Shown: positions 39,926-52,997 of the stretch, piece by piece
How the letters are laid out: each line of letters begins with the position of its first letter
Numbering within the stretch: the first letter of the stretch is position 1
Virus record (IMG/VR): IMGVR_UViG_3300028804_000001
Coordinates: 64,001 to 128,000 of that record
DNA length: 64,000 nt
Reading direction: 5' to 3' (one strand)
From: a virus
Taxonomy: Duplodnaviria; Caudoviricetes
The notes under the pieces: model-generated
What the model saw: only the letters and a program-made list of their open reading frames with translations
What the model was told of the DNA's origin: nothing
Databases searched by the model: none
Made by a program: the position numbers and the translations under genes

Positions 39926-40849
39926 ATGAATAAAAGAATACTTGTAACCGGCGGGAATGGATTTCTCGGATCCTATGTAGTTGATCGCCTCGAACAACTA
40001 GACCATAAGGTAGATCATCCTGATAGAAAAAGATGTAATCTTCTAGATGAGAAGAATCTCTACGACTATCTATCCTGGCTATCTCCAGATATAGTAATCC
40101 ATCTAGCTGCCGTTGTTGGAGGAATTGGAGCAAATAAAGAGAATCCTGGAAAGTTCTTCTATGAGAACATGCAGATGGGCATGAATATGATTCATGCTGC
40201 ATCTAGATTAGGTGTTGGAAAATTCGTATTTGTTGGAACTACCTGTTCCTATCCAAAATTTACTCCTGTCCCATTCAAAGAAACGGATATATGGAATGGC
40301 TACCCAGAAGAGACTAATGCACCATATGGAATTGCAAAGAAAGCACTTATTTCTATGGGCAATGCTTACCGGCAGCAATATGGATTGAACTTTATATCTC
40401 TATTGCCGGCTAATCTATATGGACCAAAAGATAACTTTGATCCAAGTGCAAGCCATGTCATTCCAGCACTGGTAAGAAAGTTTCAGGAAGCCAAAGATAA
40501 TAATTCTGAAGGTGTTACATTATGGGGAACTGGTTCAGCATCGAGAGAATTTCTATTCGTGGAAGATTGTGCCCGCGGGATCTGTCTAGCCACAGAAAGG
40601 TACGATAAAGAAGAATCGGTCAACCTTGGTTCAGGTAAAGAAATATCAATAAAGGAAGTTGCTACTATTATTGCCGAAGAGATTGGGTATTCTGGTATGA
40701 TCATATGGGATAGTTCAAAACCAGATGGTCAGCCCAGAAGATGCCTTGATACTAGCAGAGCTAAAGAGTTTGGCTTTGAAGCTAGTAAGGATTTTAGAAC
40801 CGGTGTAAGAGAAGTAATAGCCTATTGGAACCAGGTTAAATCTTCATGA
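39926..40849 (+). CDS. fcl: GDP-L-fucose synthase
   Basis: TGG.GFLG, HLAAVVGGIGAN, CSYPK, YGIAK, NLYGP.DNF, KPDGQPRR. Confidence 0.95.
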   Translation: MNKRILVTGGNGFLGSYVVDRLEQLDHKVDHPDRKRCNLLDEKNLYDYLSWLSPDIVIHLAAVVGGIGANKENPGKFFYENMQMGMNMIHAASRLGVGKFVFVGTTCSYPKFTPVPFKETDIWNGYPEETNAPYGIAKKALISMGNAYRQQYGLNFISLLPANLYGPKDNFDPSASHVIPALVRKFQEAKDNNSEGVTLWGTGSASREFLFVEDCARGICLATERYDKEESVNLGSGKEISIKEVATIIAEEIGYSGMIIWDSSKPDGQPRRCLDTSRAKEFGFEASKDFRTGVREVIAYWNQVKSS

Positions 40850-44674: not shown

Positions 44675-44756
44675 GGGGCCTGGGTGGATTTGAACCACCG
44701 TTTCTTACAGATCTGGAGTACATCTCTGTAAGCGCATAACCGCTTGCATCAAGCCC
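44675..44756 (-). ncRNA. tRNA-like RNA with enlarged anticodon arm
   Basis: Acceptor GGGCTTG/CAGGCCC, T-arm GGTGG-TTCAAAT-CCACC, 8-bp stem CTTACAGA/TCTGTAAG with 13-nt loop. Confidence 0.7.
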
Positions 44757-44759
44757 ATT

Positions 44760-44810
44760 TGGTGCCCCATCTACGACTCGACGTAGACGATAGCTTAAAC
44801 TATATGGGGC
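44760..44810 (-). ncRNA. 51-nt mini-tRNA lacking an anticodon arm, CCA encoded
   Basis: GCCCCAT-ATAG(TTTAAG)CTAT-CGT-CTACG(TCGAGT)CGTAG-ATGGGGC-ACCA. Confidence 0.7.
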
Positions 44811-44816
44811 GTTCTG

Positions 44817-44888
44817 TTAGCCATCAGGGGTTCGAACCCTGGACAAAGCCTTTTAGAGGGGCCTGCTCTACCACTGAGCTAATGGCTA
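44817..44888 (-). tRNA. amber suppressor tRNA (CTA)
   Basis: TAGCCAT TA GCTC AGTGGTA GAGC A GGCCC CTCTAAA AGGCT TTGTC CAGGG TTCGAAC CCCTG ATGGCTA A. Confidence 0.9.
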
Positions 44889-44896
44889 ATATTCTT

Positions 44897-45226
44897 TTAA
44901 AGCTTCAACAGCTTGTATTCTTTAAACACTTTCCTCCTTTTCTTATTGGTAATTGGTTCACTTGCTATGGCAGTCATAGCATAGTCAAGATCCGAATCAA
45001 TAAAATAACGGTATCTAATACCATTATCATCTAGATTGCGCATTGCTTTAATCAGTTCTCGCTCGGATCCTATAGAAAGGACCACAGTGTGGAGATTGGT
45101 TACTGATTTGTAGAAGTGGTTTATAGCCTCACAGGCTGCGTGGATGGATTGAACACATTGCTGTTCCTTAGGCAGATCGCTTCGGATCAGAATGTAGATA
45201 TAAGGTTTATCTATCTAGTGTTTCAT
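44897..45226 (-). CDS. Pth2-like peptidyl-tRNA hydrolase with in-frame TAG at codon 4
   Basis: Hand translation MKH*IDKPYIYILIRSDLPKEQQCVQSIHAACEA...VVLSIGSEREL...D.D....TAIASEP carries the PTH2 R.DL/Q..HA/VVL/TA signature; track shows only the 3' part. Confidence 0.82.
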
Positions 45227-45235
45227 GATGTAACT

Positions 45236-45265
45236 ATAGTAGCACAATATCTGGCGTACCGTCAA
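45236..45265 (-). promoter_or_regulatory. sigma70-type promoter for a near-leaderless pth/tRNA transcript
   Basis: TTGACG-N18-TACTAT with extended TG, 9 nt before ATG, no SD. Confidence 0.7.
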
Positions 45266-45728: not shown

Positions 45729-46045
45729 GACTGCAGCAGGAAGAACGGATTAGGAGATCCATTAACGAAGTCTCCCATCTGTTATCCCCCCAAGACTTAA
45801 GATCTGTTCTGAACATTCCAGAAGAGATTAGAAAAGAAATAAACACCGTAAAGAAGATCAAAGGTAGAGATCTTACTGATGCCGAACTGGAGATTCTTGC
45901 GGAGTTTACAACAAGATCTATAGAGAAGCTTGCTGAAAGTGCCACTAAAGCAAAAGAGCAAGAACCAAACCTCTTCCAAAAAGCGGTTCGTTTTTTTGAT
46001 AAGTTCCGTTTATGGGTGGAGGAACAGTTTGGCAAAAATAGCTAA
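45725..46045 (+). CDS. hypothetical protein
   Basis: 106 aa, coupled. Confidence 0.6.
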   Translation: MRLQQEERIRRSINEVSHLLSPQDLRSVLNIPEEIRKEINTVKKIKGRDLTDAELEILAEFTTRSIEKLAESATKAKEQEPNLFQKAVRFFDKFRLWVEEQFGKNS

Positions 46046-46655
46046 GAATGAAGCGTGTGTTATCATAGACTTTTGGAACTTCTCTCATTCTATATATAAA
46101 TTCTTAAAACAGGATTTAAAGCCTATAAAGGGCCAAACGAATGAAAATGCGCATAAGTCTAGTAAGATTAATTGGATAGCTGTTCCAAATATAATCGTAC
46201 AAGAATACTCTAAATCTAGTGGTAAGGGTTTGGTTCTAGAGCCTGCCAATGTTCACATACATCTAGCCTATTTCCAAAAGCATAGTAATGGCTTTATGGA
46301 AAAGCTTCTATATGCGATGGATATGGCGGGGTTCTCTATACATAATCACCCAACGGTTCTTAGAGAAACTAAGTGCGATGAATGTGGTTTAGTTAAACAA
46401 GAATACAAAGAGAAAGGTGTAGATGTATCTATTGCAGTCCAGATGCTAACTTCTAAATACCATTATATCTTTCTTCTTTCAGAAGATGCAGATCTGATAC
46501 CCGCGGTAACGGAAGTGCAAAAACATAATAAGAAAGTTATAAACGTATATACCTCTGGTAGAAATACATTTGAGGATATAAGTTTTAACGCAATGGATGC
46601 TCGTAAAATAATGGGCCGGCTGATATCTACTATACCTGGTAAGAATCTGGGATAA
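46029..46655 (+). CDS. NYN (LabA/DUF88) PIN-fold ribonuclease
   Basis: IID..N, EKGVDV.IA, LLSEDADL.P; TTG start with GGAGG SD. Confidence 0.85.
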   Translation: MAKIAKNEACVIIDFWNFSHSIYKFLKQDLKPIKGQTNENAHKSSKINWIAVPNIIVQEYSKSSGKGLVLEPANVHIHLAYFQKHSNGFMEKLLYAMDMAGFSIHNHPTVLRETKCDECGLVKQEYKEKGVDVSIAVQMLTSKYHYIFLLSEDADLIPAVTEVQKHNKKVINVYTSGRNTFEDISFNAMDARKIMGRLISTIPGKNLG

Positions 46656-46656
46656 T

Positions 46657-47316
46657 TTATCTCTGATTCTGCCACCAGGTCATATCTTTTCCCTTACCTG
46701 CATAGGTTGTGGATAAAGCGTGCCTAACTGTGATATGCTTAACCTCATCTATGTAGGTAAGCTGCCTTACCTTTTTAGATAAAGAAACGCACACCATTTT
46801 ATTATAGCCTAGATCTTCTCCAAAGGTATAAGCTTCTGGCCATCGAATATCCTTAAAGGATTTATGTAGAATATAGGATCCAACCGGGTATGGATTAAAG
46901 CTAGGTGTAATTATGTTAGCTAGTTCTGTAGTAGTCCTTATTGTTCTTCCAACGGCCCACATAAAATTATCAGGAACCATGTGATGCATATCATCTTCGG
47001 ATGGTTGGAAATATCTCTCAGAAGCAAAGAATACTGCAAGGGATCCACTAGTTAAGTTCTCTATCATACGTGAGCAGAAGAAGTTGTGAAGAACAATGTC
47101 ATCATCGTCTATGAAGTAAATATAGTCCCCAGTGGATCTGGCTAGAGCTATGTTTCTCTGAGCACCTGCGGATTTCTTTTCAGATATAACTATAGGGTTC
47201 TTGACTATCTCAATACCAGATGGGACCGCCAGGTTGTTTATGGCAGTCAGGCATCTTTTTAGATAATGTTCTCTTGGGGGTATTGTTGGAATAATGAAAT
47301 CAATCTGAATCTTCAT
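46657..47316 (-). CDS. GT2 glycosyltransferase
   Basis: IIPT, RN, FIDDDD, ED. Confidence 0.85.
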   Translation of the reverse strand: MKIQIDFIIPTIPPREHYLKRCLTAINNLAVPSGIEIVKNPIVISEKKSAGAQRNIALARSTGDYIYFIDDDDIVLHNFFCSRMIENLTSGSLAVFFASERYFQPSEDDMHHMVPDNFMWAVGRTIRTTTELANIITPSFNPYPVGSYILHKSFKDIRWPEAYTFGEDLGYNKMVCVSLSKKVRQLTYIDEVKHITVRHALSTTYAGKGKDMTWWQNQR

Positions 47317-48221
47317 TTAACTGGCAGTATGTTGTTATTAATGAATTCAGTCAACTCCGTTCTCCACCCACGCCGCATACTGTTAAGCCCAGTCTCAGCA
47401 TAGAATCTTTTAGTATCCATTACTGCATCTACTGGTCTCTTTGCTGGCCTGTTGTCACTAATGTAGCTAATAGGATATACCTTAACTGCTTTATCTATCT
47501 TATACTTAATACGCAGTGTTCTAACTATATGTTCTATGAACTCATGAGAAGATGCTTTTCCATCGCAAGATAAGTGATATGTTCCACACATTCTCTGGAA
47601 TACGCCAGCACCTCTGTTCATTATAGCAGCAATGTGTTTTGCTATATATTCGGTAGAAGTTGGGCAAACGAACCTATCTAAAAACCCGATAATCTTAGTA
47701 TCGGTGGTAATAGAACGTAATGTGGATGATAGTGTAGATGATGGGGATTCATCGTATATATCTCCAATCCTTATTACAACATGATCCTTACTTCTTGATA
47801 TTACTCCAGATTCTCCTCTTAATTTAGTCATCCCATAATAAGAAAGAGGCTTGGGAGTATCTCCTTCACTGTATGCTTTTCCAGAACTACCATCGAAAAC
47901 ATGATTGGTAGAAAAATGAAGAAGCTTAGCTTTAGATGTAGAGCATACATTGGCTAGAGTTGCTGGGAACTCAGAGTTGAGTTTTCTACATAAAGATCGA
48001 TCTTCTTCTTCGGCTTTGTCTAAATTGGTATAAGCTATACAGTTGATAACGATATTAACTTCATTAGTTTTAATGACTGATCTAAGTCTTACATCATCAA
48101 AAACATTCAACGATGCATGTGGAGGTGCAAGTAATATACTAGTATTAATGCCAGATAAAGCTCTGTGTATCTTCTGTCCTAATTTACCAGTTGAGCCAAG
48201 TAGTAATATTCTGGGTTTCAT
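47313..48221 (-). CDS. rmlD: dTDP-4-dehydrorhamnose reductase
   Basis: GSTGKLG, AYTNLDKAE, ST..VFDG, YG.TK..GE. Confidence 0.92.
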   Translation of the reverse strand: MKPRILLLGSTGKLGQKIHRALSGINTSILLAPPHASLNVFDDVRLRSVIKTNEVNIVINCIAYTNLDKAEEEDRSLCRKLNSEFPATLANVCSTSKAKLLHFSTNHVFDGSSGKAYSEGDTPKPLSYYGMTKLRGESGVISRSKDHVVIRIGDIYDESPSSTLSSTLRSITTDTKIIGFLDRFVCPTSTEYIAKHIAAIMNRGAGVFQRMCGTYHLSCDGKASSHEFIEHIVRTLRIKYKIDKAVKVYPISYISDNRPAKRPVDAVMDTKRFYAETGLNSMRRGWRTELTEFINNNILPVK

Positions 48222-48775
48222 AAACTTAAAAATGGACTATTCTTATCTTTCTCAGAGAGTATAAAATCATCTAGAGGAAGATTCTTATTCCATTCCAATC
48301 CTTTAATTGCTGGATCCCTATAGTTTATATACTTAGATCCGCTGGGTGAATATGGAGCATCTACAGTATAGGAAATAATAGTATTAGGCTCTAAAGCTAG
48401 AAAACCATGCGCATGATTTTCTGGTATCCATAATGCCTCATCGTGTTCTGCAGAGAGAACACAAGAAAAGGCATGCATGAAGAACTCGCCTTCATCCAGG
48501 CATATGGCAATATCTAGTATTGCGCCATGCAATACCTTAATTAGTTTATTCTGCCTGGGCTCCTGATAGTGGAATCCTCTGAACACATTTTTATGTGAGA
48601 GGCTTACATTCTCTATAAGAGGCCTTGCCATAAAGGTATTAACGGCCAAGGAGAAGTATTCAATAGGGGATAATCCCTGTAAGAAATATCCCCTATCGTC
48701 TCTGTATTTCTTAAGCTGCACCAGAGAAAATCCAGTGGGAGATATTTGATTAGTTCCTGCAACTTGTATACTCAT
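48218..48775 (-). CDS. rmlC: dTDP-4-dehydrorhamnose 3,5-epimerase
   Basis: DDRGYF, RGFHYQ, AHGF, SEKD. Confidence 0.93.
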   Translation of the reverse strand: MSIQVAGTNQISPTGFSLVQLKKYRDDRGYFLQGLSPIEYFSLAVNTFMARPLIENVSLSHKNVFRGFHYQEPRQNKLIKVLHGAILDIAICLDEGEFFMHAFSCVLSAEHDEALWIPENHAHGFLALEPNTIISYTVDAPYSPSGSKYINYRDPAIKGLEWNKNLPLDDFILSEKDKNSPFLSL

Positions 48776-49635
48776 AATGATCGTAAGAAATCAGCGTAGT
48801 TATTTTTTACGTTGCTGTACTGCTTAGTAATATACGCTGACATAGTTTTCTTCGAGACATAATCAAGTCTGATTGCAGCCTCCTCAGGAGATCCTACACA
48901 ATTGGAATCTAATTTGCCCATTGTTATATACTTCTCAACAAGAGCTATATTTTCTACCGTTCCGCAATCCTTCCAGAAGCATTCAGTAGGAAGCTTCTCG
49001 ACGTTACATATTTTCAAACCCAAGTATATATTGATAAGATCTACGATCTCGAGTTCATTTCTTTTAGAAGGTTTTAATCCTTTGGCAAAATGAGAAACGG
49101 TAGATGGGAATCTATAAAGGCCAGTTAATGCCTGATTTGATGGTGGGATTTTGGGCTTCTCTACTAGTTTATTCTTAACAGGATCATAAACTCCAAAGGC
49201 TTGTGGCTTAGGAATATACTTAGTAAAAGCAAATGCATTGAACTTATCTCCCATGAACTTCTTTTGATAATATTCAAAGGGGAAGTTATGAAAGAAGTTA
49301 TCACCAAGAAGTAGTGTAACTGGCTGATCCCCTATAAACGGCCGGCCAAGAATAAACGCTTCTGCTATTCCACGGGGGCTATCCTGGACAGAGTAATATA
49401 TGTTTATTCCCCACTGGTGCCCAGATCCAAGCAGATCTGCCATCCTTCCAGTATCCTGGGGAGTAGAAATGATTAAAATTTCTCGGATCCCAAGCTCCAT
49501 TAAGAAACGAAGTGGATAGTAAATCATCGGCTTCCCATTTATGGGAATAAGCTGCTTAGAAATAGACATTGTTGCTGGGTAAAGTCTGGTCCCAGAACCA
49601 CCAGCTAGTATTATACCACGGTCGGAGATTTCCAC
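48772..49635 (-). CDS. rmlA: glucose-1-phosphate thymidylyltransferase
   Basis: GIILAGGSGTRLYP.T..ISKQL.P...KPMIYYPL. Confidence 0.95.
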   Translation of the reverse strand: MEISDRGIILAGGSGTRLYPATMSISKQLIPINGKPMIYYPLRFLMELGIREILIISTPQDTGRMADLLGSGHQWGINIYYSVQDSPRGIAEAFILGRPFIGDQPVTLLLGDNFFHNFPFEYYQKKFMGDKFNAFAFTKYIPKPQAFGVYDPVKNKLVEKPKIPPSNQALTGLYRFPSTVSHFAKGLKPSKRNELEIVDLINIYLGLKICNVEKLPTECFWKDCGTVENIALVEKYITMGKLDSNCVGSPEEAAIRLDYVSKKTMSAYITKQYSNVKNNYADFLRSL

Positions 49636-50654
49636 GTTCTACCCTCATTCATATACGACTGTTCTAACCATTCTTTATGATCAAGATACCAGCTAACAGT
49701 TTTATAGATGCCTTCTGAGAAACCCACTTGGAATCTCCAATCTACTGCATCTAGGGCCGAACGAGGATCTATGGAGTAAGCCATATCATGCCCAGGTCTA
49801 TCGATTATATAATCTATACCCAGGTTAGGCTTTCCCATTGCTCTTAGAATAATATCAACTACTTGATTATTAGTAATAGCTATGCCAGTTCCTATATTAA
49901 TAACAGTGCCAGGTTGCGCATTCTTTGCTACTTGATATATACATTGAACATTATCTTCAACATATAACCAATCCCTTGAATTCTTTCCATCTCCATAAAT
50001 CTGCGGCTGGATATCGTTCATTGCATATCTAATAGTTCTTGGTATCAGCTTTTCTGGATGTTGCCAAGGACCATAGTTATTGGAAGATCTAGTTACAGCT
50101 ATTGGGTACCTGTAAGTTTTGTAATAAGATCTAGCTATCAAATCTGCGGAAGTCTTACTCGCAGAATAAGGAGAGTTTGGGTAAAGAGCAGAATCTGAAG
50201 TAAATGGTTTATTGTTGTTATACTCTAAAGAGCCATAACTCTCATCAGTTCCTATTTGAATATGAAAGAAGTTCTTCTTATCTGCTTCATCTAGTGTGTT
50301 ATAATATTCTAGACCTGCTGCCATTACATTAGCAGCTCCCATGATATTAGTTTTAAAGAAACCACTCGGATCAACTATTGATCTATCTACGTGAGATTCG
50401 GCCGCACAATTAATTATACAGTTTGGCATATATTTCATTGCCTTTCTCATACTATCTAGATCATTAATATCATAGTTTAAAAATGTATACCGGTTAGGTA
50501 TAACCATGTTGTATTCGAATTCTTCTACTCCGTAGGCATCTGCGTCTTTATCGATATTGATTACATCTATACCATGTTGAATGAATTTTTTAATCAGGCT
50601 TCTACCTATAAATCCATGACCGCCAGTGATAATAACTCTTTCTATTTTTCTCAT
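49611..50654 (-). CDS. rmlB: dTDP-glucose 4,6-dehydratase
   Basis: TGG.GFIG, AAESHVDRSI, TDE.YG, PYSASK, NNYGP.Q.PEK, DRPGHD. Confidence 0.95.
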   Translation of the reverse strand: MRKIERVIITGGHGFIGRSLIKKFIQHGIDVINIDKDADAYGVEEFEYNMVIPNRYTFLNYDINDLDSMRKAMKYMPNCIINCAAESHVDRSIVDPSGFFKTNIMGAANVMAAGLEYYNTLDEADKKNFFHIQIGTDESYGSLEYNNNKPFTSDSALYPNSPYSASKTSADLIARSYYKTYRYPIAVTRSSNNYGPWQHPEKLIPRTIRYAMNDIQPQIYGDGKNSRDWLYVEDNVQCIYQVAKNAQPGTVINIGTGIAITNNQVVDIILRAMGKPNLGIDYIIDRPGHDMAYSIDPRSALDAVDWRFQVGFSEGIYKTVSWYLDHKEWLEQSYMNEGRTWKSPTVV

Positions 50655-51544
50655 CGTGCTCTTACCCTGGTAACCGCGGTTGTGTTTGGATCTATATCAA
50701 AATGAAATGTAGGATGTGGCTTATCATAGAATCTATCCATGAATGGACGCTTACATGCAAAATTCATAATGGTTTCAAATATATTGCCAACATCCATACC
50801 TATTAAATTGGCCTCTCTCTTTACCATCGTAGATAATATCTTAGCTGCTGCACCGCAACTAAAAAGAAATACTGCATCCTTATTTCTATATGAATTCCTA
50901 ACTCTCTTCTTGATTTCATCTAGATTGCTCATAGCAAAGTTAGGAATATCTGGAGTTGGGATAGTGTTAACTATGTTAATTCTTTCTAGCTTTAGATCTG
51001 GATGGAGAGATCTGAAAGCTTTGTTAGTATGGAAGTAGTTCTGGTAATATACCATCTTACCTCCAACTAGAACCACATCTCTATCCCATAGATCCTGGAA
51101 CAATCTACCAGATCCTGCATATTTATAAATGGCGTGAACTTCATATAGGGGCTTATTGCCTAATATATTATTAAGGGCCAACATATCCAGGGTCGGTCCC
51201 CAAAAGTTTGGACTTCTATTTATTCTAGGATCGTGAACACCTAAGAATGTAGCTTCTTCTACCGCAGCCATCAACTCATCAGATCTGGGTATATTATTCT
51301 TATCTATCCCGCACCACCATAGTATATTATCAACGGTAGAATCACCAATTGTCTTATTGCGTATAAGAAATCTGGCCTCAACATCTCCTATTCTGACTAA
51401 AGAAAATGGAACTCTATTCTTTAATTTATCGGATATTAGATCTATACACTTCTCACCACTCTCTATAAATTTAGAGTAGAAATCGGCAACTGAATTCTCA
51501 TTGAACTCACTGGAGAGTGTATTTTTTGAATAGTCGTAATACAT
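50651..51544 (-). CDS. GT-D-fold-like glycosyltransferase
   Basis: SLVRIGD.E ... G..AK...D.G. Confidence 0.6.
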   Translation of the reverse strand: MYYDYSKNTLSSEFNENSVADFYSKFIESGEKCIDLISDKLKNRVPFSLVRIGDVEARFLIRNKTIGDSTVDNILWWCGIDKNNIPRSDELMAAVEEATFLGVHDPRINRSPNFWGPTLDMLALNNILGNKPLYEVHAIYKYAGSGRLFQDLWDRDVVLVGGKMVYYQNYFHTNKAFRSLHPDLKLERINIVNTIPTPDIPNFAMSNLDEIKKRVRNSYRNKDAVFLFSCGAAAKILSTMVKREANLIGMDVGNIFETIMNFACKRPFMDRFYDKPHPTFHFDIDPNTTAVTRVRAR

Positions 51545-52251
51545 TAAAACCCGCGGAGTTTATATTTATCAGTTATAGAACTGTACATCAATCCTTCACT
51601 ATTGAGAAGATCATCTATCTGAGCCGATGTAAAAATACTGTTAACTGTAGAACTCACCTGGTGAAATAGGAAATGAGCATGATCTACTACAGTTCTAAAT
51701 CCTTTCTTTCTAGCCATCTGGTATATAAAGTTATCCCCGTAGAATATTCTTAACTCTGATGGGATCTGCTCGTATTGTTTAACTCTACCAAAGATATACC
51801 ATCCCAACATATGATATTCATTACCAGGTCCTAGGTTGCGAAGATCTGGCTGGCTCTTCTGCTGCTTATGCACCGATAGATATATATCAGAACTGATCTG
51901 TGTTAGCGTTCGAAAGGTTTGGATCCCGATTGTATTATCACTCATTATTCCTTCTGAAGTTTCAATACATGTATCCCATACAAGACAATCATCATTTAAC
52001 AAAAGATAGAACTCTGTTTGTGAAGATACAACTCCTAAGTTCCAGGCTTTGTTAACTCCTATATTAGTTGGGAAATACGAAATCTTTATATTTGGACTAA
52101 GTTCTGAAAAAGGTCTACATCCATTATTAGATGTGTTATCGATAATATGAATATTGCACTTCTGTTTTAAAAGTGTATCTATATTAATCCTAAGAAGCTT
52201 CGGAGCTTTTAGAAGAGTAGGTATAACAACTGTAGTCTTATTATCACTCAT
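51544..52251 (-). CDS. GT2 glycosyltransferase
   Basis: VVIPT, IDN, N.GVN.AWN.G, LLNDD. Confidence 0.85.
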   Translation of the reverse strand: MSDNKTTVVIPTLLKAPKLLRINIDTLLKQKCNIHIIDNTSNNGCRPFSELSPNIKISYFPTNIGVNKAWNLGVVSSQTEFYLLLNDDCLVWDTCIETSEGIMSDNTIGIQTFRTLTQISSDIYLSVHKQQKSQPDLRNLGPGNEYHMLGWYIFGRVKQYEQIPSELRIFYGDNFIYQMARKKGFRTVVDHAHFLFHQVSSTVNSIFTSAQIDDLLNSEGLMYSSITDKYKLRGF

Positions 52252-52997
52252 TATATTCCAATCCACCCTTCTTGGAAAAGACATGATGTATCGATATGGG
52301 ATAATGAAGGTCCAAACCAATTCTTAGGATATACCGTTTTACTTTTTGATAAATAGGCTCCCCACCATGAGAATGATGAATTGGCAATTATAGAACCTTG
52401 TGATTTCTGCAAATGAGCAAAATCTACCGCGGGGTTACTATTAGCAAAAGATACATTTGAACCAAGTTCTTTAAGGTTATCCATACACCATCTATAGTCA
52501 TCAGATATAATCAGAAACTTTTCTAATCCAAAACCTTCCATTATCTTCTTGGCTTCTTTATAATAATCTATGCCAACTACTGGATGGTGGTCTGGTAGCA
52601 TAAGGTAGTCCCCTCTACGCACATGTATGGTTCCAGTTTTATCCATAGAAAATGGAAACTCTATATCAAGAGAGAATAGTTCATGTATGAGATCTTCATA
52701 TCCTTCCCAGTATTTAGGAGATTGGAAATATCCTTTGTAGCTGCAGTTTCTTATTTCTGGTAATGGGTCATATTCCCATCTAGGAGCTTCGTAATTATAA
52801 ACCATTGCTAGTTTAGTTCTAGGTAAAAATCTAATGCCAGCTTTCTCAAATTTATCCTGGAAGACTCTTCTATATTCCCATTCAGAAGGCAATATAACTT
52901 CTTCCTTAATTCTCCTACCATGAGCTACAACTGCAGCTACTTGAAATAGAGAATTGCCTAGCCTTCCATATTCGCCTAAATCAGAAAATGTTATCAT
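52251..52997 (-). CDS. GT11 alpha-1,2-fucosyltransferase-like
   Basis: GRLGN.LFQ, GYFQS, HVRRGDY, ANSSFSWWGA. Confidence 0.92.
   Translation of the reverse strand: MITFSDLGEYGRLGNSLFQVAAVVAHGRRIKEEVILPSEWEYRRVFQDKFEKAGIRFLPRTKLAMVYNYEAPRWEYDPLPEIRNCSYKGYFQSPKYWEGYEDLIHELFSLDIEFPFSMDKTGTIHVRRGDYLMLPDHHPVVGIDYYKEAKKIMEGFGLEKFLIISDDYRWCMDNLKELGSNVSFANSNPAVDFAHLQKSQGSIIANSSFSWWGAYLSKSKTVYPKNWFGPSLSHIDTSCLFQEGWIGI

Follow-up and report, generated by a model that had tools for sequence, protein, structure and literature searches.

Two adjoining genes on the minus strand of a virus contig, encoding tRNA-like RNAs of 51 and 82 nucleotides (nt), belong to a variable array of non-decoding tRNA mimics, which lies in a small phage operon behind a pth2-like gene and an amber-suppressor tRNA. 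Both RNAs are real, and both are very likely under selection. Tentatively, we regard the mimics as decoys of the top-half tRNA type in a translation counter-defence module, a function that is possible but that we would not yet call probable. The window analysed here, 64,000 nt long, spans positions 64001-128000 of one virus contig of 225,628 bp, with 38.8% GC and an estimated completeness of 83%; this contig is found in metagenomes from activated sludge, wastewater and marine samples in several studies. The features referred to below are as follows.

44675..44756, minus strand: 82-nt tRNA mimic; cloverleaf, discriminator C, no encoded CCA
44732-44704, minus strand: 29-nt arm at the anticodon position of the 82-nt RNA; 8 bp, predicted GA/GA loop, 2 bp and 5-nt tip
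44712..44724, minus strand: length-polymorphic loop of the 82-nt RNA; 13 or 16 nt, the difference being one triplet repeat unit
44760..44810, minus strand: 51-nt mini tRNA mimic; acceptor 44810-44804/44770-44764, D-like hairpin 44803-44790, T-like arm 44786-44771
44763 and 44762-44760, minus strand: 3′ end of the mini RNA; discriminator A (A73) and encoded CCA
44817..44888, minus strand: amber-suppressor tRNA; anticodon CUA at 44856..44854, no encoded CCA, RF00005 score 59.1 bits
44897..45226, minus strand: Pth2-fold gene; 109 codons, in-frame TAG as codon 4
45215..45217, minus strand: amber gate codon; next base A
45236..45265, minus strand: predicted sigma70-like promoter; TTGACG, 18 nt, extended -10 TACTAT

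Structure of the two tRNA-like RNAs

In the mini RNA, a 7-bp acceptor stem encloses a 5-bp D-like hairpin (4-nt loop), a 3-nt linker and a T-like arm of 5 bp that closes a loop of 6 nt. The anticodon arm is absent, and the acceptor and T stems form a 12-bp stack. An earlier reading of the DNA, made from its letters alone (hereafter the sequence-only reading), had placed both RNAs behind the suppressor tRNA; these coordinates were confirmed, on the minus strand. It had also described the mini RNA as retaining only acceptor, D-like and T-like arms, in agreement with the predicted fold (z -4.3; 0 of 200 shuffles were equally stable). Since both G18G19 and a 7-nt T loop are missing, "D-like" and "T-like" are the correct terms. 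The further claim that this is the sole tRNA-type gene with an encoded CCA holds for the whole contig. The mini RNA is also the only perfect 12-bp stack with NCCA within 60 nt in the contig, while Markov genomes contained 0-2 each (mean 0.5). The Rfam tRNA model RF00005 (cut-off 29 bits) did not match it. Its sequence was invariant across 6 other aligned assemblies, and because other assemblies carry it unchanged, assembly error is excluded for both RNAs.

The 82-nt RNA is a cloverleaf with 7 bp in the acceptor, 3 bp in the D stem, GG in the D loop, a 4-nt variable loop and a canonical T arm; G18G19 and the 7-nt T loop are present, and the 7-bp acceptor is again combined with a 5-bp T stem. 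Its fold had a z of -4.1, U8 is substituted, and RF00005 gave a partial match of 16.6 bits, below the 29-bit cut-off. As for its arm, the 8-bp stem of the sequence-only reading stands, but the open 13-nt loop needs correction: it is predicted (pair probability 0.97) to be partly paired, two base pairs separating a GA/GA internal loop from a tip of 5 nt, and it is 16 nt long in 7 of the 8 other assemblies covering it and also in two independent runs. The arm thus totals 29 nt here and 32 nt in the +3 variant. Three other assemblies have a different 3′ end. Because loop length and 3′ ends differ among assemblies, the tip and tail of this RNA are free to vary.

Neither RNA has the canonical anticodon arm, a 5-bp stem and a 7-nt loop with U33 and R37. 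tRNA geometry suggests that neither would bridge the A site of the ribosome, as the arm is absent in one and at least three pairs too long in the other. This would be different if the 82-nt RNA were an intron-containing tRNA-Trp that is spliced into a decoder. The loop does contain CU-CCA-GA, and relaxed ARAGORN called a Trp tRNA with a 4-7-nt intron. However, when single excisions were enumerated for both loop variants, a check that the sequence-only reading had proposed, none left a 5-bp stem and a 7-nt loop that has U33 and R37, together with a variable loop of 3-5 nt, so splicing of the long loop is unlikely. The Trp register has two Watson-Crick pairs only and is destroyed by the common +3 variant, and RtcB was not found in the contig, of which 83% is estimated to be present. 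We therefore consider a spliced tRNA-Trp barely credible. The Rfam models of tmRNA and bacterial Y RNA gave no match at E up to 10, and ARAGORN detected no tmRNA in the window; a permuted tmRNA called by relaxed ARAGORN at genome position 55823 was dismissed as noise, because it lies inside an ORF.

No ortholog of the mini RNA was found: an exact-pattern scan of viral contigs gave 0 hits, a stem scan over 1.3 Mb of fetched loci gave look-alikes only, viral-contig searches with queries P0001 or A3 gave no related loci, and in blastn against cultured phages the suppressor tRNA alone was matched among the best 20 of 122 matches. One look-alike, on the minus strand of L091 near 957, is a 49-nt acceptor/T element with CCA and without an anticodon arm, at a locus without a pth2 match.

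Operon order and genomic setting

On the minus strand, pth2 (stop at 44897) is followed by tRNA-CUA, the 51-nt RNA and the 82-nt RNA with gaps of 8, 6 and 3 nt. This gene order agrees with the earlier placement of both RNAs in the pth transcript. Co-transcription itself is suggested by the short gaps, the promoter-like site and the lack of a terminator in between, which together point to one transcript for pth2, tRNA-CUA and both mimics. In one RNA run, contigs covered the flanks but none covered the operon, which speaks neither for nor against its expression. The candidate promoter matches 9 of 12 consensus positions, which by itself is not above chance; its geometry is equal in loci L128, L129 and L130. 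It would put the pth2 ATG at, or about 4 nt from, the start site, and no Shine-Dalgarno sequence precedes this ATG. A plus-strand ORF of 96 codons (44744-45034) was rejected as the antisense shadow of tRNA and pth2. The genetic code is standard: TAG ends 41 of 204 long ORFs, and the coding density hardly shifted in a TAG read-through test (0.911 versus 0.918), by which genome-wide TAG recoding (code 15) was ruled out. No CCA enzyme or release factor, as no RtcB, was found in the contig, with its 83% completeness.

The NYN RNase to which the sequence-only reading had drawn attention lies at about the distance given (1.1-1.2 kb), but a link to the two RNAs is not supported, as it is on the opposite strand, is transcribed away and is not a recurrent neighbour. 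The NYN-domain protein (window 45930-46655, plus strand; best PADLOC match HEC-09, E 5e-12) forms a divergent unit with an HTH gene. No NYN gene was detected beside pth2 in relatives by tblastn, an insensitive search here, and NYN was not among the families present in at least two pth2 neighbourhoods. Glycosyltransferase and nucleotide-sugar genes, including a GDP-fucose-synthase-like gene and an rmlABCD-like cluster, appear in the ORF list at window positions 39926-40849 and 46657-52320.

Pth2-fold gene, amber gate and suppressor tRNA

The frame at 45226..44897 reads M-K-H-amber and then the whole Pth2-like domain, a gate that was absent from the sequence-only reading. The domain matched PF01981 with 28.5 bits (cut-off 23), and its model (pLDDT 93) had TM scores of 0.70-0.78 to archaeal Pth2. 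R15, D17, Q26, H29, D/E77 and D79 are invariant in the family. For comparison, we take the catalytic Lys, Asp and Thr of Pth2 to be K18, D86 and T90 in S. solfataricus. The acidic catalytic position is retained in 151 of 151 sequences and the Thr position is variable, while the Lys position in the GKGK loop is occupied by Gln in 113 of 148 and by Lys in none of them. The protein has the Pth2 fold, with hydrolase activity only putative because the GKGK-loop Lys is absent.

ARAGORN labels the suppressor "Pyl", which reflects the anticodon alone; the cloverleaf is canonical, and identification as tRNA-Pyl was rejected. Suppressor acceptor stems vary freely among loci, and for this reason the identity of the inserted residue seems unimportant.

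Under a strict rule, 36 of 50 distinct loci have an early in-frame stop in pth2; inspection and the addition of two loci bring this to 44 of 52. All four closest pth2 relatives (56-66% identical) have an amber codon immediately ahead of the first strand, and downstream of each there are tRNA-CUA and/or odd tRNA-like RNAs. tRNA-CUA occurs within about 1 kb at 15 of the 34 strict TAG loci, and in addition at L138 and L147, compared with 0 among the 264 canonical tRNAs of control loci. At the TGA-gated loci L166 and L187, the adjoining tRNA is UCA. A purine after the stop codon favours suppression. Of 34 gate TAG codons, 33 have a purine as the next base, versus 46 of 83 ordinary TAG stops, a contrast inflated by relatedness, as the loci are not independent, and by coding constraint. 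The ATG upstream of the gate has a Shine-Dalgarno motif in other loci, or a leaderless start as in this phage. Ungated exceptions are the Xoo-sp13 and XacN1 fusions, RaK2, L164, L190, L193 and L195.

Several further observations were made at these loci. Another in-frame TAG follows the first helix of pth2, within a loop, in 5-6 loci (L151, L152, L165, L177, L184, L185), in several of which TAG is an ordinary stop. L176 (2340-2490) has a tandem pair of different tRNA-CUA genes behind pth2. In Salmonella phage Arash (L140:3310-3600), a tRNA labelled Phe carries a CUA anticodon; behind it lie two long-arm tRNA-like RNAs that are not annotated, and pth2 is annotated as a fragment only. The pth2-like gene is unannotated in L135 (Serratia BF), Yersinia fHe-Yen9 and Erwinia pEa_SNUABM phages, the amber codon having been read in BF. 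Long ORF-free spacers, apparently structured, lie upstream of pth2 in BF (L135:1100-1400), GAP32 (L142:1361-1660) and RaK2 (L139:1070-2000).

Pth2 neighbours at some loci fall into repair or counter-defence families: Pnk-like kinase (3), NADAR (2), an Apyc1-like gene and a PolyA_pol-family nucleotidyltransferase. The flanks of the pth2 operon in L130 and L131 hold the PolyA_pol-family nucleotidyltransferase, a second, ungated PTH2, ThiF and the Apyc1-like gene. A conserved protein of about 150 amino acids without a PHROG match is encoded, mostly directly behind pth2, at 10 loci that are mostly mimic-free (L141, L151, L152, L156, L165, L166, L173, L177, L181, L198).

A family of non-decoding mimics beside pth2

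About 26 non-decoding tRNA mimics, selected by a stem-based detector and by eye, were found beside pth2 in 14 loci. They keep the top half of tRNA and have lost the anticodon: the anticodon arm, 14-36 nt long, is deleted, capped or swollen, and in none of them is it normal. The smallest are 35-nt CCA minihelices of 12 bp (L147) and the largest reach about 145-175 nt, with up to five different mimics in one array (L153). Short arms are closed by tetraloops (L130, L153), other arms have 7-8 bp (L153, L160, L179), and an internal purine loop as in the 82-nt RNA recurs in L128, L130, L132 and L186. Discriminators, acceptor pairs and T loops differ widely, and G3-U70 is found in none. No mimic is present within about 1 kb of most gated pth2 loci, so the mimics are optional.

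Features that the detector does not score, namely the D stem and the base of the arm, were paired at 94 of 105 positions in 15 mimics curated by eye, versus 71 (maximum 81) in shuffles. The sequence-only reading had argued for selection rather than decay from perfect stems; this is borne out at the family level, where pairing of acceptor, D, T and arm base persists among unrelated sequences at 14 loci, with loss of the anticodon. Conservation in relatives, which it had proposed as a check, gave a divided answer, as the mini ortholog was missing but the non-decoding design beside pth2 recurred in the same 14 loci.

Odd long-arm tRNA-like genes are present also in pth2-free tRNA clusters of control loci. 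Ordinary phage tRNA clusters in L011, L039, L045, L052, L072, L105 and L106 contain tRNA-like genes of 105-170 nt with a swollen anticodon region, and L045 also contains a nested CCA-ended mini element.

Proposed function and alternatives

The module could constitute a new phage translation-control system, in which a stop at the start of one gene, read only by the operon's own suppressor, monitors release-factor activity as well as tRNA maturation and turns on a Pth2-fold protein, which in turn acts with anticodon-less mimics against host tRNA-targeting defences; we offer this with reserve, as plausible rather than probable. One transcript would start from the promoter at 45265, and processing by the RNase P of the host, trimming at the 3′ end and CCA addition would release its three RNAs. 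RF1 and the suppressor would compete at codon 4, and the Pth2-fold protein would be made only if the phage's own tRNA has been matured and charged; otherwise a three-codon minigene would be read. Such a gate recalls prfB autoregulation and the lambda bar minigenes. The mimics would display the 12-bp acceptor/T stack and the NCCA end, which proteins acting on tRNA ends recognise, while avoiding the ribosome; they would titrate host enzymes directed against tRNA ends or aminoacyl-tRNA, with blocked tRNA being recycled by the Pth2-fold protein. The CCA-acceptor-T domain suffices for E. coli Pth (PMC3488237), TacT acetylation of aminoacyl-tRNA is reversed by Pth (PMC9241777), and ribosome rescue has been proposed as a role of jumbo-phage PTH2 (PMC7824862). 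Decoys for anticodon nucleases, as suggested by the sequence-only reading, are a poor fit because the anticodon loop is the part that was lost.

Instead of decoys, the mimics might be dedicated ligands of the Pth2-fold protein, either an RNP partner or a competitive inhibitor that tunes its activity on real tRNAs. They usually start 5-90 nt from the pth2 stop or from the suppressor behind it, the protein has the invariants of its own listed above, and the 150-amino-acid protein takes the place behind pth2 at mostly mimic-free loci as if the partner slot were exchangeable. Such a ligand would, however, have to tolerate highly variable sequences, discriminators and T loops and be missing at most pth2 loci, and we consider this role rather unlikely. 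Lower still do we rate the idea that the mimics are aminoacyl donors for a non-ribosomal transferase, comparable to the non-proteinogenic tRNA-Gly of staphylococci. Anticodon recognition is dispensable for LeuRS, SerRS and AlaRS, and the mini RNA has its encoded CCA, G1-C72, A73 and altered D and T loops; but the donor role, also raised by the sequence-only reading, is weakened by the absence of identity elements common to the mimics (discriminator and acceptor identity are not shared, G3-U70 does not occur and a long variable arm is missing), and no recurrent transferase was found among the pth2 neighbours.

It is similarly improbable that the mimics are mere processing signals of the t-element or mascRNA type for cutting by RNase P. 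RNase P does read a 12-bp stack with NCCA, and the head-to-tail gaps are 3-6 nt, but the suppressor tRNA already supplies a cut behind pth2, no coding sequence follows on the minus strand, and the five-mimic array exceeds what punctuation requires. We are just as doubtful that the RNAs are tRNA pseudogenes in decay, of which one has suffered a deletion and the other an insertion. The lack of orthologs in the four closest pth2 relatives, the polymorphism of loop length and 3′ end, the replaced U8 of the 82-nt RNA and one stem-breaking variant in L124 (1.8x contig) would be expected of decay. The perfect 12-bp stacks, the re-formed hairpin and the 8-bp arm are nevertheless structure gained, and the non-decoding design recurs beside pth2 in unrelated sequences.

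Comparison with known systems

A literature search found no description of a module of pth2, suppressor and mimic. If the decoy and gate proposal is true, it would give a function and a test system for phage RNAs of tRNA-like shape that are lost or misnamed in annotation, a question that has stood since T4 species 1 and 2. Like those T4 RNAs, rnaC and rnaD, which are stable and of unknown role (PMC3014915, PMC9697503), the present RNAs would come from a phage tRNA operon, and rnaC also ends in a canonical T arm. The T4 RNAs are, however, 119-139 nt long, have no D-arm cloverleaf like that of the 82-nt RNA and adjoin neither suppressor nor pth2; blastn gave no match to T4 among the best 20 of 122 phage matches, and the folds differ except for the T arm.

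The allo-tRNAs of Mukai et al. (PMC5389517) are irregular tRNAs in polycistrons for which a non-translational role tied to toxin-antitoxin systems was proposed; as in the present array, such irregular RNAs stand head to tail and nonsense suppressors accompany them. They have 8/4 or 9/3 acceptor/T stems, a long variable arm and an anticodon, whereas the RNAs here have 7/5, a 4-nt variable loop in the 82-nt RNA and an anticodon arm that is deleted or swollen; an amber-interrupted pth2 lies upstream here, and PMC5389517 does not mention "peptidyl". Engineered CCA-acceptor-T minihelices (PMC3488237) likewise have the 12-bp stack and NCCA, enough for Pth binding. Unlike these, the RNA described here is encoded in a phage genome and has an extra D-like hairpin. 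If the proposal holds, natural minihelix-type RNAs would serve in conflict. The 12-bp acceptor/T stack with NCCA is found also in mascRNA and t-elements, which are eukaryotic processing modules.

The protein shares with archaeal/eukaryotic Pth2 and jumbo-phage PTH2 (PF01981; PDB 2zv3, 1wn2; PMC7824862) the fold, the Q-x-x-H helix motif and the acidic residue after the fourth strand, and differs from them in its shortened GKGK loop without Lys and its N-terminal stop-codon gate; PMC7824862 does not mention a suppressor for jumbo-phage PTH2. The gate would be a single-gene stop-codon switch in standard-code phages and is testable in the cultured phages Serratia BF, Cronobacter GAP32, Acinetobacter ME3 and Salmonella Arash, where the gene is unannotated or truncated. 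As in TAG-recoded (code 15) phages and in pyrrolysine-type decoding, an in-frame UAG would be read by a phage or operon tRNA-CUA; unlike the former, the genome is not recoded, and unlike the latter, the tRNA is not tRNA-Pyl and has a canonical cloverleaf.
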